From: Candidatus Omnitrophota bacterium
GTDB lineage: Bacteria > Omnitrophota > Gorgyraeia > Zapsychrales > JANLHA01
Direction: 5' to 3'
Length of the DNA stretch: 32,000 bases
NCBI GenBank assembly: GCA_963662715.1
Contig: OY759724.1
Span: 1,710,001 to 1,742,000 of the forward strand
Part shown: piece after piece, positions 20,085 through 25,260 of the stretch
Layout of the letters: the number at the start of each line of letters is the position of its first letter
Position numbering within the stretch: the stretch's first letter is position 1
Translations under genes and position numbers: made by a program
Notes under the pieces: model-generated
Seen by the model: only the letters and a program-made list of their open reading frames with translations
What the model was told of the DNA's origin: nothing
Database searches by the model: none

Positions 20085-20975
20085 ATGGATTTCCAGGGGA
20101 CAGTGGCTTTATTGGGGACAGGATTGCTGGGGGCAGCCTTGGCTGAAAGATTGCTCGAAAGAAAGCAACCTTTGGTCGTTTATAACAGAACTCCGGAAAA
20201 ACTGTCTGCTTTGAAAAATTTGGGGGCGGAATCCTTTGAGACTCCGCAGGAGGCCATCCGGCGGGCGTCTGTTATTATTTTAATGTTAAGCGACAGCCGG
20301 GCCATTGAGGAGGTCCTTTTCCCTGACGGCTTTAAGAATTTTTCCGGGAAAACATTCATTCAGATGGGGACAATTGCTCCGGCTGAAAGCCAGCGTCTCC
20401 TGTCCCGGATTCAAAGCCTGAACGGTGAGTATTTTGAATGTCCTGTCCTGGGCAGTATCCCGGAGGCCAGGTCCGGGAATTTAATCCTTATGGCCGGGGC
20501 GTCTGAGGAACAGTTCTTGCGGTGGAGGGATTTTCTGTCCTGTTTTGGTCCCCGTCCGAGACGGGTCGGTGCGGTCGGGCAGGCTGCGGCTATGAAACTG
20601 GCGCTGAACCAGCTTATTGCCGCCCTCGTATGCTCGTTTTCTGTATCCCTCGGTATTGTTGAAAAAAGGAGCATAGATGTTCAGCAGTTTATGGATGTGT
20701 TGCGGGAGAGTGCCTTGTACGCCAAGATGTTTGACAAAAAACTGCCCCGGATGCTTAAGAGAAATTTTGTTCAGCCCAATTTCCCCGTTAAACATCTTCT
20801 TAAGGATGTTCTTTTGATCCTGGATGAGATCGATAAAAATCAAATTTCGCCACTGCAAACAGCGGGCGTAAAAGGTATAATTGAAGAGGCTTTGCAGGAA
20901 GGGTTGGCGGAACAAGACTATTCGGCTGTTTTTAATGTCATCTGTCCGCGGACAGATTCGGGAGACAGGCCCTGA
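20085..20975 (+). CDS. NAD(P)-dependent beta-hydroxyacid dehydrogenase family oxidoreductase (HIBADH/6PGDH-NAD-binding type)
   Basis: The protein has a VALLGTGLLGAALAERL Rossmann motif, VVYNRTPEK, and GQAAAMKLALNQ (catalytic Lys block). Confidence 0.85.
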   Translation: MDFQGTVALLGTGLLGAALAERLLERKQPLVVYNRTPEKLSALKNLGAESFETPQEAIRRASVIILMLSDSRAIEEVLFPDGFKNFSGKTFIQMGTIAPAESQRLLSRIQSLNGEYFECPVLGSIPEARSGNLILMAGASEEQFLRWRDFLSCFGPRPRRVGAVGQAAAMKLALNQLIAALVCSFSVSLGIVEKRSIDVQQFMDVLRESALYAKMFDKKLPRMLKRNFVQPNFPVKHLLKDVLLILDEIDKNQISPLQTAGVKGIIEEALQEGLAEQDYSAVFNVICPRTDSGDRP

Positions 20976-20976
20976 T

Positions 20977-22290
20977 ATGTTCTTAAAATCAAAACATTAT
21001 CACATTAAAGGAGCTGTTTTGGAAAAAGGTCAACGTGTGCAGGGTATAAGAGTGGTGGCGGGGCTTCTTGTTATTTCAAACCTCCTTGTCCTTGTTTTTC
21101 ACTATATACTTCCCCATTTTTTTCAGCAGCAGATTTTTGAGGCGTTTATCCCTTTTATCTCCACTCTGGCCGTTTTCCCGTTTGATTTTTATCAATCTTA
21201 CCTTGTCCAGCAATGGGGCGCTCAGGTGGGCTGGATACTGGTGATACTCCTTTGCGCCTGGGGGATTCTTATCCATAAACAGTGGGCCCGCATGACTCTG
21301 ATCGTGCTGGGAATTATCCATTGTATTATCCTCGCTTTCATTGTCATCATGAAGCTGAACCAGTGGTATGTGATTATGCTGCAGTATTGTTTCCGTCTTT
21401 ATTTCAACCTGGTGGCTATCGGGTCTTATATCGGATTTTTGACCATGTATGAAGTCCGGAGCCAATTCGTTTCAGACCCGTTTTTTGACAAGGTGAATTT
21501 TTTGTTCAGGAAATTGTTCTGGAGGAACACCCCGATCGCCAGCGCCAGAGGTTATTACAACTTGGGGTTGGCTTATCGGCGGTTAGAACGCTTTTCGGAT
21601 GCTTTGCATTTCCTGGGGAGAGCCGTTGCCGAAGAACCGCGCAACGCGCATTTCCATTTTGAGCTGGGCCAGACACATTTTTTGCTGAGACATTGGCAGG
21701 AAGCCGTCGAGTCTTTTCAGAAAGCCGCGGCGTGTGATGTTGTTTTTCTCCCGGCGTATATTTTCCTGGGACGCGCCTTTCTTAATCAAGGCTGTGCGCA
21801 AGAGGCGGTCGCGGCGTTTTTGAAGGCCTCTCACGTGAGAAACGAAGACGGTGAAATATATTATTACCTGGGAGTGGCCTATCAGCAGGGGGCGAACATG
21901 ACAGAAGCCGAAGACGCTTTCCGGGAAGCGGTTCAGAAGGGCTTTCAATCCGTGGACAATTATTACCGTCTGGGGCAGGTGCTTTTCCATCATCTGGAAA
22001 AATATCATGAGGCCGAAAGCGCGTTGCTGAAAGCCGTGCAGGTTGATAAGAATCATACGGAAGCCCATTTCCTTTTAGGGTTAACGGCTATTAAGCTGTT
22101 GAAATATAAAGAAGCTATCCGTTCCTTTAAGAACACCCTTTCGCTAAGCCCTGAGCATAACCAGGCTCATTACCAGCTCGGTTTTTCTTACGCGATGATC
22201 GAAGACTTTGATTCGGCCCGCCGGGAATATTCTTACTTGCTGTCCGCGGATAAGGATTTAGCCGAAACTTTAAAACTGGTGTTGAAGTGA
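20977..22290 (+). CDS. Membrane protein with N-terminal polytopic region and C-terminal TPR repeats
   Basis: ATG 20977 lies 1 nt after the upstream TGA (20973-20975). There are ~5 hydrophobic segments in aa ~25-170. At least 6 TPR-like 34-mers follow (YYNLGLAYRRLERFSDALHFLGRAVAEEP..., HFELGQTHF..., YYYLGVAYQQ..., YYRLGQVLF..., HFLLGLTAI..., HYQLGFSYA...). Confidence 0.8.
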   Translation: MFLKSKHYHIKGAVLEKGQRVQGIRVVAGLLVISNLLVLVFHYILPHFFQQQIFEAFIPFISTLAVFPFDFYQSYLVQQWGAQVGWILVILLCAWGILIHKQWARMTLIVLGIIHCIILAFIVIMKLNQWYVIMLQYCFRLYFNLVAIGSYIGFLTMYEVRSQFVSDPFFDKVNFLFRKLFWRNTPIASARGYYNLGLAYRRLERFSDALHFLGRAVAEEPRNAHFHFELGQTHFLLRHWQEAVESFQKAAACDVVFLPAYIFLGRAFLNQGCAQEAVAAFLKASHVRNEDGEIYYYLGVAYQQGANMTEAEDAFREAVQKGFQSVDNYYRLGQVLFHHLEKYHEAESALLKAVQVDKNHTEAHFLLGLTAIKLLKYKEAIRSFKNTLSLSPEHNQAHYQLGFSYAMIEDFDSARREYSYLLSADKDLAETLKLVLK

Positions 22291-22300
22291 TTCAAGACAT

Positions 22301-23326
22301 ATGAAGAAGATACTGCTTATCGGCCTGGCCGTCCTGGCGGCCGTTTTGGCGCATGATGTTCTTGGCGCCGAGACCACACATCCCGGGGACACCCGCCGTC
22401 ACCGGGCACAGGCTGTAAATGCCTCTGCTCTTTCTGCCGCCCCGGCGCCTCGCCCTGACGCTGACGGGACCTCGCAGAATCAATCACCGGCGTTCCCCGA
22501 AGAGATAGAATCCGCGGATTTGATGAAATTAATCCCTCTTCATCAAATCAAGACAGCCCCGGGGCCGTATGACTGGCTGGCCACGCACCCGGAACCCGGC
22601 CAGGATTTTGATGATTACATCTCGTCGAGTCCCGTATCGCCGGACGCTGAGAGGAAATGTATCTATATCGTTCTGTTGGGGGATTTTGACTCTGTCAGAA
22701 AAACGATCATTGAAAAGACAGCGAGGTTTATCCAGGCGTATTATACATTGCCCGTCAGATTCCTGCCGCCGATACCCATGTCTGTTATCCCCCCGGAAGC
22801 CAGGCGAGTGCATCCGCAGACCCGGGATAAGCAGATCCTGACAACGTACGTTCTGGAATCCTTGTTAAAGCCCCTTGCCCCGGAAGACGCCTTTTGTCTG
22901 ATTGCCTTTACCTCCTCGGATTTATGGCCGGGAGAGGGCTGGAACTTTGTTTTCGGACAGGCGTCCTTGCCCGACAGGTTAGGGGTCTGGTCTGTTTACC
23001 GTAACGGCGACCCTCACGAAAGCGATGAGATGTACCGCTTATGTCTTTTGCGGAGCATCAAAACGGGGGTGCATGAAATCGGGCATATGTTTTCCATGCA
23101 TCATTGCATATATTTTGAATGTAATATGAACGGGAGCAATCACCGGCAAGAAAGTGACAGCCGGCCCGTCTGGCTGTGTCCTGTTTGCTTAAGAAAATTG
23201 CTCTGGGCGGTTCATGAAAATCCGGTTGAACGTTATAAAAATCTTGTTGAAATTTGTGAGGAATTCGGGTTAATGGCTGAGAAAAAATTTTTTGAAAGGT
23301 CCATTGAACTTTTGACGAGCCCCTGA
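22301..23326 (+). CDS. Archaemetzincin-like zinc metalloprotease (peptidase M54) with N-terminal signal peptide
   Basis: HEIGHMFSMHHCIYFECNM followed ~16 aa later by CPVC fits the archaemetzincin signature HEXXHXXGX3CX4CXMX17CXXC (Ser in place of Gly). The N-terminus MKKILLIGLAVLAAVLAHDVLGAE is signal-peptide-like. Confidence 0.8.
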   Translation: MKKILLIGLAVLAAVLAHDVLGAETTHPGDTRRHRAQAVNASALSAAPAPRPDADGTSQNQSPAFPEEIESADLMKLIPLHQIKTAPGPYDWLATHPEPGQDFDDYISSSPVSPDAERKCIYIVLLGDFDSVRKTIIEKTARFIQAYYTLPVRFLPPIPMSVIPPEARRVHPQTRDKQILTTYVLESLLKPLAPEDAFCLIAFTSSDLWPGEGWNFVFGQASLPDRLGVWSVYRNGDPHESDEMYRLCLLRSIKTGVHEIGHMFSMHHCIYFECNMNGSNHRQESDSRPVWLCPVCLRKLLWAVHENPVERYKNLVEICEEFGLMAEKKFFERSIELLTSP

Positions 23327-23469: not shown

Positions 23470-23497
23470 TTGCTGAAGAGATATATTGTGCTATAAT
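23470..23497 (+). promoter_or_regulatory. Candidate extended -10 promoter (TTGCTG - 16 nt - TGcTATAAT)
   Basis: TTGCTG lies at 23470-23475, TG at 23489-23490 and TATAAT at 23492-23497. The site is ~45 nt upstream of ATG 23540 in an AT-rich 210-nt intergenic region. Confidence 0.45.
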
Positions 23498-23539
23498 TTA
23501 TATAAACAGGATTCTTTAAATATAAAGGATGATCTTTCC

Positions 23540-24418
23540 ATGCTGCACCGCCTAAACCGTAACAATGCCCAATCAATGATAGAGTATGTCACTGTGGCGA
23601 CGCTGGTTATGATTGGTATCTTAGTTATGGGTCCTTATGTCACCCGTTCCATTAATGCCTTTTTTAAAAATATTGAAGATGATGTGGATGATGCTTTTAA
23701 GGAAGAGATGACGCAGGGTGATCCGAGCGTAGAGCTTCCTGACTGTTATTGCACGAACTTAGTGGACCAGGCGTGCGGGGGCGGGGGCTGTAACAGCCGG
23801 CAGATGTGGTTAAGAAGAGACTGCTATCCTCTGGGCTGTGAAATTGCTTATCAAGCCGCAAATCCGGGCTGGATTTATGAAGATTGCGAATACCGCGACT
23901 ATTGCTGTACGAACTGGGCGGAAACCGGTCTTTGCGGCGTTAATGCGACTGTCCCGGGCGCATGCCCGAATGGAGAAATGGAATATGAACATTATTGCGG
24001 GGCGGCAAATACCCGGACCGTTGTGTGCCAGAGCACGTGTCAGGGGCAGGTGGGCTGTCCGGCGCCGCCGCATCCGCTGTGTATATTTTTCTGTACAGAC
24101 ACGGCAGGAAATGAAGTCACTCCTGCGATGCTGCCTTTCGCATCGTATTGTACAGATGATACAACAGACTTGCCCGGTAATCTGGTCGTAACCTTTGTGC
24201 CAAACGGAGCCTGTACTGACCCGCTTAAATGTGAAGCGGAATGTTATTCGGGGTTTGTCCCGGCGGCAACCTGGGGGTGCACATGCCCGCCCCATTCACA
24301 TGCGGTCGGTAATCACTGTGTTTGTGACCCGGGATATTTCTTCCGTGATGGGTGTAATTCGGATGAATGCTTGCAGGACGGCTGCCCGGCCGGCCGGTGC
24401 TACGGCATCCTGTTCTAG
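23540..24418 (+). CDS. Flp/type IV prepilin-like leader fused to a large cysteine-rich (EGF-like motif containing) extracellular domain
   Basis: ATG 23540 has the SD AAGGATGA. The N-terminus MLHRLNRNNA|QSMIEYVTVATLVMIGILVMG puts Glu at +5 and Tyr at +6, followed by a hydrophobic helix, as in the Flp G/XXXXEY motif. The remaining ~250 aa hold 29 Cys, including HCVCDPGYFFRDGC (EGF-like CxCxxGYx4-8C). Confidence 0.7.
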   Translation: MLHRLNRNNAQSMIEYVTVATLVMIGILVMGPYVTRSINAFFKNIEDDVDDAFKEEMTQGDPSVELPDCYCTNLVDQACGGGGCNSRQMWLRRDCYPLGCEIAYQAANPGWIYEDCEYRDYCCTNWAETGLCGVNATVPGACPNGEMEYEHYCGAANTRTVVCQSTCQGQVGCPAPPHPLCIFFCTDTAGNEVTPAMLPFASYCTDDTTDLPGNLVVTFVPNGACTDPLKCEAECYSGFVPAATWGCTCPPHSHAVGNHCVCDPGYFFRDGCNSDECLQDGCPAGRCYGILF

Positions 24419-24582: not shown

Positions 24583-25260
24583 GTGAATTTTATGTACCAG
24601 GAATATATTGATAAATTTTTTGAGAAGTATCCCAAATACCGGCCGCTTTTTGAGAAAGCCAAAGAAGAGAAATATTCCATTCTGTTGGGATTCCTGATTC
24701 TGCTGGCGATTATCCCCATATTTTGCTCGTCCGGCAAACCCCGCATATATTATAACGAAACTTTTGGTTATCAAATCCTCATCCCGCCTCAATGGCGGGA
24801 CAAGCTCTCTGCTGATAAACGTGTCCTCACCTTAAAGAAGCGTCAGAGAAGGAGTTTGGGAAAGGCGGAGATAAAAGTCCACGTTGATGTGGGGAACCCT
24901 TACGGGACAAAACCTTTTGATTATGCTTATTACGGTCTTCTGCCCCGGGTAAAATATATGTATGCAAAGAAGGGGCGTAAAGAATTTACGATCCGCGATT
25001 ATCCGTACACGAAAATATTCAGCGGTAAAGAATGGGGGGTTTTGGCTTTTACCCTTGATTATAAAGATCTGTATGTCATGTATGTCACTCAAAAAGGTGA
25101 CTTTGTTTTTGTCTTTACTTTAATCACTTCCGGAGTAAAACAAAAAGAAGCTGAGGCCGATTTCCAGGGCATTGTCCGTTCAGTCTTGATTGAGCGCAGG
25201 GAACGGGTCAATGTTTTTACCGACCCTGAGGCTGATGTCCTTTTTTCGCATCCTTTATAA
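24583..25260 (+). CDS. Hypothetical membrane-anchored protein (single TM, no recognised domain)
   Basis: The ORF is 225 aa, with one hydrophobic segment (ILLGFLILLAIIPIFC) followed by a Lys/Tyr-rich soluble region. The start (GTG 24583 or ATG 24592) has no clear SD. A hairpin terminator lies downstream. Confidence 0.5.
   Translation: MNFMYQEYIDKFFEKYPKYRPLFEKAKEEKYSILLGFLILLAIIPIFCSSGKPRIYYNETFGYQILIPPQWRDKLSADKRVLTLKKRQRRSLGKAEIKVHVDVGNPYGTKPFDYAYYGLLPRVKYMYAKKGRKEFTIRDYPYTKIFSGKEWGVLAFTLDYKDLYVMYVTQKGDFVFVFTLITSGVKQKEAEADFQGIVRSVLIERRERVNVFTDPEADVLFSHPL

Follow-up and report, generated by a model that had tools for sequence, protein, structure and literature searches.

The locus considered here poses the question of what a protein might be that opens in the manner of a Flp-type prepilin and then continues into a long domain crowded with cysteines. 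The gene lies on the forward strand of a 32,000-nucleotide stretch of a Candidatus Omnitrophota genome (contig OY759724.1, positions 1,710,001 to 1,742,000), which whole stretch we shall call the window. Two matters have to be settled: whether the pilin-like beginning is a true pilin module or a hydrophobic N-terminus that happens to resemble one, and what purpose a pilin with so bulky a head would serve. A sequence-only reading of the window had described the open reading frame (ORF), its leader, its number of cysteines, several cysteine-containing strings, and the lack of pilus genes nearby, and as a whole that description proved correct. Judged from alignments and sequence profiles, what is new in this protein is the fusion of a Tad-type pilin to a new head domain in a family almost restricted to one phylum.

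In translation, the N-terminus reads MLHRLNRNNA followed by QSMIEYVTVATLVMIGILVMG, with alanine at position −1 of the predicted processing site, glutamine at +1, glutamate at +5, and tyrosine at +6. All the elements of a class III signal are present: a basic leader, a small residue at −1, Glu +5, Tyr +6, and a hydrophobic stretch. The ensuing module, which corresponds to the alpha-1 helix of pilins, runs in the order QSMIEY, hydrophobic helix, G21-P22-Y23 (in the numbering of the mature protein), RSINA, and an acidic amphipathic end; and an acidic linker joins it to the 230-residue cysteine-rich domain. When the profile of the first 60 residues of the target family was aligned by hhalign with the profile of 20 pilins from Omnitrophota Tad loci—these being whole proteins of 46–65 amino acids—the two matched over 52 columns with a probability of 99.2% and an E-value of 2.7e-19, while a tblastn search reached the same pilins at E-values down to 2e-8. 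On the strength of these comparisons, we consider the first ~55 residues to be a complete Flp-type pilin, homologous to the pilins of the Tad loci. The sequence-only reading had singled out the leader, with its Glu +5, its Tyr +6, and its hydrophobic helix, and had left room for a convergence on the pattern; the leader turns out to belong to a genuine pilin module, and a chance convergence is effectively excluded because of the hhalign homology and the retention of the motif across the family. Indeed, the EY pair, whose absence from homologs had been named as the sign of a fortuitous resemblance, is maintained: among the 75 family representatives with a readable N-terminus, 73 have Glu +5 and 63 have Tyr +6, the −1 residue being glycine in 49 and alanine in 26. 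The conserved motif at the predicted processing site reads [KR]x[GA] ahead of the putative cut and Q-S-x-[ILMV]-E-Y behind it.

The Tad loci that served for this comparison came from a scan of a genome collection with the N-terminal profile, which scan gave 76 loci, nearly all in metagenome-assembled genomes (MAGs) of Candidatus Omnitrophota, a few being labeled Planctomycetales by automated pipelines. The majority of them (L030–L088) carry clusters of 3–8 small genes for proteins of 50–150 amino acids whose N-termini have K[GA] before the predicted cut and QSxLEY after it. In the flanks of one such locus, L067, Pfam recognized RcpC/CpaB, a secretin, a fusion of TadZ (ParA-like) and TadA (T2SSE), a TadG-like protein, and two T2SSF proteins (TadB and TadC); and phmmer searches of the fetched flanks with the L067 proteins located at least one canonical Tad-machinery gene in 50 of the 59 loci. 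Two peculiarities of L067 may be recorded here, namely that its secretin (3460–5118) carries a C-terminal TonB_C domain and that its TadZ–TadA fusion (5123–7282) is a single protein of 719 amino acids. Locus by locus, the best counterpart of the target is a whole pilin of 46–65 residues, such as MPKIFYNKKAQSFLEYVMLTLVITTALVAMYPYMRRSINARLKQIQVELNESKR from L040. The alanine at −1, which had been regarded as a departure from the usual glycine, is ordinary in the Omnitrophota, since among the 254 leader-bearing ORFs of L030–L088 (nearly all of them Tad-linked) 108, or 43%, carry alanine in that place, with glycine in 141 and serine in 5. Of the available family models, Flp_Fap matches 8 of the 20 Tad-locus pilins (best E 1.3e-5; 16.2 bits for the first member), apparently without any of the 20 reaching the gathering score, and Class_IIIsignal matches 2 of the 20 weakly. 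According to the literature, Tad loci are widespread in the Omnitrophota and are expressed in the predatory V. archaeovorus, and Tad pili have been inferred to contribute to predation or parasitism by members of the phylum (PMC10066038).

Regarding the head, the cysteines of the protein number exactly 29, as had been counted, and span residues 69–287; the strings DCYC, ACGGGGC, YCC, and KCEAEC quoted earlier are all found in it, and the cysteine-rich part, put previously at some 250 amino acids, measures 232 (residues 61–292). In the alignments, about 17–22 of the core cysteines show little or no variation from one member of the family to another, the tail beyond that core being conserved only in close orthologs and in the homolog L019. 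Neither Pfam nor NCBIfam has a model for the whole target or for the cysteine-rich part alone. Full-length homologs were rare in the initial search (four among 5.8 billion proteins); a profile search of a word-indexed database brought 33 proteins, unannotated save one named as a Hint-domain protein; and 17 of the scanned genomes (L013–L029) encode related proteins of 291–687 amino acids with 21–51 cysteines, most of which share the helix end MGPYVxRSINA, L025 and L028 being variants. An exhaustive search of 1.84 billion cluster representatives with a hidden Markov model of the core alone returned 357 representatives at E ≤ 1e-3—nearly all from Omnitrophota—and 181 at E ≤ 1e-10. Leader and head travel together, because the core starts at about residue 60–70, as in the target, in most of the 150 matches listed; and the leader, the helix module, or both are found in at least 110 of the top 140, the others including many N-terminally truncated calls, so that homologs combining the same leader with a cysteine-rich architecture, for which a search had been recommended, do exist. 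Lectin-type domains have been added in some members, namely Laminin_G_3 in L018 (E 1e-18) and PA14 in P0039. On this evidence, the cysteine-rich core defines an undescribed family almost confined to the Omnitrophota; no paper in the library searched deals with cysteine-rich Flp pilins, and two genomics papers on the phylum, PMC10066038 being one, do not describe the family.

The top 140 matches range from 151 to 1420 amino acids in length, with a median of 378, and about 20 of them are unrelated repeat proteins with Sec signal peptides, in which the C-terminal sub-module is the sole part of the core present and is repeated in tandem. Since that sub-module is repeated in Sec-secreted proteins that also match Big, Invasin, Lcl, and, partially, Sushi in Pfam, we take it, from its distribution, to behave as an extracellular cysteine-containing building block. 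The longest of those proteins—P0041, P0046, P0098, and P0110 are among the group—reach 1420 residues, 158 cysteines, and 16 repeats, and the repeats resemble a bacterial Sushi-like (CCP) cysteine repeat, apparently uncharacterized. There exist, moreover, stand-alone headless proteins of 63–77 amino acids (P0006–P0012, e.g., L007, 1261–1452) that share the module KKAQSxxEY...MGPYxxRSINA and that may be short pilins cognate to the headed proteins. The genes of these paralogs are orphans on short contigs, one adjoining lexA for example, which contigs have no pilus genes and are uninformative on that account.

An AlphaFold2 model computed with a 31-sequence family alignment attained a mean predicted local distance difference test (pLDDT) score of 84.7 and consisted of a 42-residue helix (residues 13–54) followed by a beta-rich head, which domain was modeled at a pLDDT of ~88–95 over residues 61–270, the final ~25 residues being poorly defined. 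A long alpha-1 helix with an oversized globular head, as the model has it, is the general layout of the type IV pilins, and from the ~17–22 near-invariant cysteines together with the confident beta-rich prediction the head is probably rich in disulfides. Foldseek gave nothing significant against either the PDB (best E 0.36, template-modeling score, TM, 0.14) or the BFVD (best E 0.014, TM 0.13), and a profile search of the PDB sequences was empty at E ≤ 1; the modeled head is thus one without a known structural relative within those two collections.

An EGF-like signature had also been claimed for the C-terminal end, and as a pattern the claim stands: HCVCDPGYFFRDGC matches PROSITE EGF_2 (C-x-C-x2-[GP]-[FYW]-x4,8-C), the pattern being met by CVCDPGYFFRDGC at residues 260–272. 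As a domain the claim fails, for neither Pfam EGF nor Pfam Sushi matches the target even at E ≤ 10. Shuffling the target's own cysteine-rich sequence produces the pattern 3% of the time, and 8 of 140 representatives contain it where shuffles predict 2.5; apart from L019 (as read by eye), its conservation is limited to three close orthologs, and P0004 and P0005, full-length homologs at a greater distance, lack it; the segment was modeled with a low pLDDT of 48–78; and the Foldseek matches to Jagged, Delta, and TSR structures were insignificant (E ≥ 0.36, TM ≤ 0.15). We therefore rejected an EGF-like domain as a feature of the family—the segment belonging to a nonconserved, variable tail, with a low pLDDT and no Pfam match—and regard it as no more than a local disulfide module of small size, and not as a defining trait.

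The gene and the surrounding features of the window are collected in Table 1. The longest frame in the list of ORFs extends from a TTG at 23486 to 24418; the ATG is preferred as the start because of the AAGGA sequence ahead of it and because the starts of the homologs, which lie without exception 8–10 residues ahead of the A/G-Q site, align with it. The promoter that had been claimed for the gene, near-consensus with an extended −10, is borne out in its −10 element, which is perfect with its TG extension, and less so in its −35, which has three of the six consensus bases; this weakness of the −35 is the reason that a consensus promoter scan omitted the site.

Table 1. Positions of the features discussed, counted from the first nucleotide of the window.
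Feature	Position	Strand	Remarks
EF-G-like protein	3877..6969	+	1030 aa; GTPase domain from residue 337; ~330-residue N-terminal extension with a weak coiled-coil-type match
Paralogous GalT/HIT-like genes (galactose-1-phosphate uridylyltransferase family)	7250..8269 and 8212..9273	+	overlapping
SET-domain protein	11376..11903	+	E 1.5e-24, in a bacterial genome
Fusion of transporter (major facilitator superfamily, MFS), acyltransferase, and AMP-binding enzyme	13283..16735	+	1150 aa; Aas/LplT-like lysophospholipid recycling; kept in relatives (L001)
TPR/membrane protein	20881..22290		ends 10 nt before the archaemetzincin gene
Archaemetzincin-like Zn protease	22301..23326	+	Peptidase_M54 E 3e-11; NF033823 E 3.5e-24
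Promoter-like site	23470..23497	+	TTGCTG (−35), 16-nt spacer, TGcTATAAT (−10); 43 nt 5' of the ATG
Shine-Dalgarno-like AAGGA	23525..23529	+	10 nt ahead of the ATG
Coding sequence, likely start ATG	23540..24418	+	292 aa + stop; Flp-type pilin module joined to cysteine-rich head
Putative class III (prepilin) leader MLHRLNRNNA	23540..23569	+	predicted cleavage after Ala10; conserved motif
Pilin alpha-1 module, residues 11–60	23570..23719	+	hhalign to Tad-locus pilins; AlphaFold helix 13–54
Conserved cysteine-rich core, residues 69–249	23744..24286	+	23 Cys; alignments, exhaustive profile search, pLDDT ~88–95
Variable C-terminal tail, residues 250–292	24287..24415	+	6 Cys; pLDDT 48–78
Segment matching EGF_2	24317..24355		within the tail
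Membrane-anchored protein	24583..25260	+	225 aa; no Pfam/NCBIfam family; one N-terminal transmembrane helix; synteny by phmmer

For the neighborhood, about 28 ORFs of at least 100 amino acids, picked by eye from a six-frame list of 64 and covering essentially all the long nonoverlapped frames of the window, were scanned with Pfam and NCBIfam. As had been stated, no pilus or Tad genes were recognized among them, whether TadA/CpaF, TadB/C, a secretin, or an A24 peptidase, and no other window ORF of at least 45 amino acids has a class III-like leader. The scanned genes are instead housekeeping in kind: PriA, Fmt, the EF-G-like protein, GapA, a two-component system, SpoU, MarR, the Aas-like fusion, an extracytoplasmic-function (ECF) sigma factor, the TPR protein, the archaemetzincin, Mut7-C, and an AddA-like helicase. 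In L017, the family member is likewise preceded by this GalT/HIT-like pair along with GapA and SpoU. Directly upstream of the target lies the archaemetzincin, which in translation begins with a Sec-type signal peptide and shows the canonical motif HEIGHMFSMHHC...C...CPVC. The trio of TPR protein, archaemetzincin, and target is kept in five related genomes, and three of the four initial full-length homologs sit in syntenic loci comprising those three genes and a protein of 220 amino acids; the corresponding 225-residue protein of the window occurs directly 3' of the target in six loci, the distant L006 included. The secreted archaemetzincin and the exported cysteine-rich target might be functionally linked, and the 225-residue protein is a possible partner of the target.

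Across the family, three synteny groups may be distinguished. The clade of the window has the arrangement of TPR protein, secreted archaemetzincin, target, and 220-residue membrane protein, followed in the relatives by DUF6580 and a TonB-dependent receptor. In a second group, of six loci, the family gene is divergent from a block of queCDE, murI, an amidase gene, a short secretin-domain gene, and rsmB; that secretin-domain-only gene, encoding ~250–290 amino acids, lies ~1.7 kb upstream on the opposite strand in L020, L022, L023, L026, L029, and L090, its product in L020 matching PF00263 at E 2.6e-14. In the third, of five loci, clusters of several radical-SAM/SPASM genes come after the family gene, 1–6 kb downstream of it in L023, L024, L026, L028, and L089; PMT_2 glycosyltransferases and an APH-like kinase gene are found in L089 as well. 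These radical-SAM/SPASM and PMT_2 neighbors might modify the cysteine-rich protein—through thioether formation or glycosylation—or might simply be inherited synteny.

Some members of the family do adjoin genes of filament machines. The family genes of L024 and L089 are divergently adjacent to pilM-N-O-(P)-Q, and that of L018 stands last after a gspK-like gene, a pilM–pilN fusion, a gspM-like gene, and TPR genes. As for the Tad loci, adjacency was seen only in L025, whose protein P0040 (10004–11413; 469 amino acids) has a related pilin leader, a different cysteine-rich region with 51 cysteines, and a Hint domain of the intein/hedgehog type, and may be an autoprocessing headed pilin; its gene is directly upstream of RcpC, secretin, and TadZ–TadA, the Tad genes beginning at 12495. 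In addition, a family member (L026) occurs in the MAG ELA163, which on another, short contig (L086) has a cluster of small pilin-like genes with leaders; no canonical Tad gene was found on L086. The candidate machine, as far as gene adjacency is a guide, could thus be of either the Tad or a type IVa-like kind, several of the family members adjoining pilMNOPQ and not tad genes.

The target may be compared with several known systems. With the Flp/Fap pilins of the Tad (type IVc) pili (PF04964; Aggregatibacter Flp1, Caulobacter PilA) it shares the basic leader, the G/A at −1 with EY at +5 and +6, and a hydrophobic helix of ~20 residues; those pilins, however, are proteins of 50–80 amino acids that are essentially all helix, whereas the target, with 292, adds a cysteine-rich globular domain of 230, and it differs from them on three counts: the Pfam threshold, the size, and the location in a tad locus. 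The kink at Gly21-Pro22 of the target helix, followed by Y..RS, is reminiscent of the type IVa pilins. The large minor pilins of type IVb pili, TcpB of Vibrio cholerae and CofB of enterotoxigenic Escherichia coli, and the tip pseudopilin GspK of the type II secretion system combine an alpha-1 helix with an oversized globular domain and are low-abundance tip subunits that bind, cap, or initiate. The target has the same overall layout and the same proposed role, although theirs are encoded inside pilus operons; and no T2SSK or related Pfam match, nor a PDB fold match below E 0.36, connects it to that group. The pseudopilins TadE, TadF, and TadG are likewise larger than Flp, possess a prepilin-like N-terminus, and are processed by TadV, and TadG-like proteins are present in the Omnitrophota Tad loci; but the TadE/G-like N-termini of those loci differ (e.g., QATIEF), whereas that of the target matches the short Flp-like type. 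The target has no match to TadE (PF07811) or Tad (PF13400), while the TadG-like protein of L067, taken as a control, does match PF13400. Archaeal proteins with a class III signal peptide (PF04021, Q-x-S-x-E) have the Gln +1 and the Glu +5 in common with the target, and archaeal pilins often bear globular heads; the lineage of the target is nevertheless bacterial, and it has no Class_IIIsignal match. Finally, the EGF-like and Sushi modules are, in a similar manner, small cysteine-spaced beta-hairpin units, without a Pfam match of either to the target.

The protein that emerges from all these comparisons would operate as follows. It would enter the inner membrane as a bitopic prepilin whose leader would face the cytoplasm and whose cysteine-rich domain would face the periplasm, whereupon an A24-family prepilin peptidase of the TadV/CpaA or the PilD type, encoded elsewhere, would cut after Ala10 to expose QSMIEY. 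The head would fold with multiple disulfides; the alpha-1 helix would let the protein join a filament of short pilins sharing its N-terminal type; and the headed protein—a minor or tip subunit by reason of its bulk—would pass the secretin to serve as an adhesin or host-recognition module. Such a function fits because the tails vary, because lectin domains are appended in some members, and because Tad pili are inferred to act in the predatory or parasitic lifestyle.

That the target is a headed Flp-type pilin, a minor or tip subunit with an adhesive role in a Tad-like or type IV filament, is therefore the explanation that we favor, with a confidence that is fair and well short of high; it is also the best-supported form of the tip adhesin or pseudopilin that the sequence-only reading had envisaged, there being relatives with lectin-like domains and some that adjoin type IV filament genes. 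Certain observations weigh against it. The Flp_Fap model scores only 15.1 bits (E 0.021) on the N-terminal 60 residues of the target and 23 bits on the relatives L028 and L029, all below the gathering score of 32.2, and does not appear in the Pfam scan of the whole protein. Genes for Tad or type IV pili are absent from the window and from the 10 kb on either side in the five closest orthologous loci, and no neighbor is conserved across the entire family, which is divided instead among the three synteny groups. Inside the Omnitrophota Tad loci inspected we recognized no A24 prepilin peptidase: a regular expression for that enzyme (GxGDxK in a hydrophobic ORF) yielded a single fragmentary candidate in ~90 loci, and a 191-residue ORF of L067 that had been considered for the role was rejected as pilin-like. 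The MAGs that contain the family and those that contain Tad-type pilin clusters are almost disjoint (1/17), which is weak evidence because the scan patterns were narrow and the MAGs incomplete. Moreover, Tad systems are reported to be frequent in the Velamenicoccia and uncommon in several other Omnitrophota classes, where type IVa pili dominate (Seymour et al., PMC10066038).

Some of those circumstances lend weight to another interpretation, which we judge unlikely and yet take seriously: that the pilin module is a plain type II signal anchor and that the protein, cleaved or not, stays in the inner membrane outside any filament, with, for instance, a binding or sensing task in the periplasm alongside the secreted archaemetzincin, the 225-residue membrane protein, and a TonB-dependent receptor. 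The gene is an orphan with a promoter-like site of its own and no machinery nearby; the synteny of the window clade consists of archaemetzincin, 225-residue membrane protein, DUF6580, and TonB receptor and not of pilus genes; and Tad pilin clusters were seldom seen in family-bearing MAGs in the scan. A mere anchor, however, has no need of a strict G/A at −1, Gln +1, Glu +5, Tyr +6, and GPYxxRSxNA in several hundred diverged proteins, nor does it account for the headless paralogs of 63–77 residues with the same module or for the several relatives that adjoin type IV filament genes. Distinctly improbable, in our estimation, is a metal-binding or redox protein in which the ~29 cysteines would ligate Zn, Fe-S, or Cu, or act as a thiol buffer, instead of forming structural disulfides. 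Cysteine does make up 10% of the residues, with several C-x3-C, C-x4-C, and C-x-C pairs, and the source organisms come largely from anoxic habitats (groundwater, digesters), where disulfides are less expected; but the protein has neither a CxxCH heme motif nor a Pfam metal-cluster family, the domain is predicted to be extracytoplasmic, the AlphaFold model is confidently beta-rich and globular without cofactors, and the C-terminal sub-module recurs in Sec-secreted multidomain surface proteins. The number of cysteines in the target is odd, yet pairing is feasible for those that are conserved. As to the notion that an ordinary hydrophobic N-terminus happens to fit G/XXXXEY, it can appeal to the absence of any Pfam or NCBIfam family for the whole protein and to the low Flp_Fap score; against the hhalign and tblastn matches to the Tad-locus pilins and the conservation of the motif, it is effectively refuted, and we assign it almost no probability.

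Tad/Flp pilins have been regarded as minimal proteins, little more than one helix, with adhesion ascribed to the fiber or to separate pseudopilins, so that a Flp pilin with a large head that has no structural relative would represent a new way to arm a Tad-like filament. In a more far-reaching version, which we offer tentatively and as possible though doubtful in its entirety, these would be the first Tad-type pilins with a large globular receptor-binding head, disulfide-knotted and of an unseen fold, and would be the tip adhesins by which ultra-small, host-dependent Omnitrophota select the surface of their prey or host; the core would be the scaffold, the hypervariable tails and the LamG or PA14 additions would set the host range, and the orphan location of the genes would reflect a single machine that takes interchangeable headed pilins from around the genome. 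The family, which neither Pfam nor NCBIfam describes, offers a new, probably disulfide-rich fold for structural work; and with its hundreds of sequence clusters, nearly all in one uncultured phylum thought to be predatory or parasitic, it is a concrete candidate for the molecule by which these nanobacteria attach to or recognize a host.

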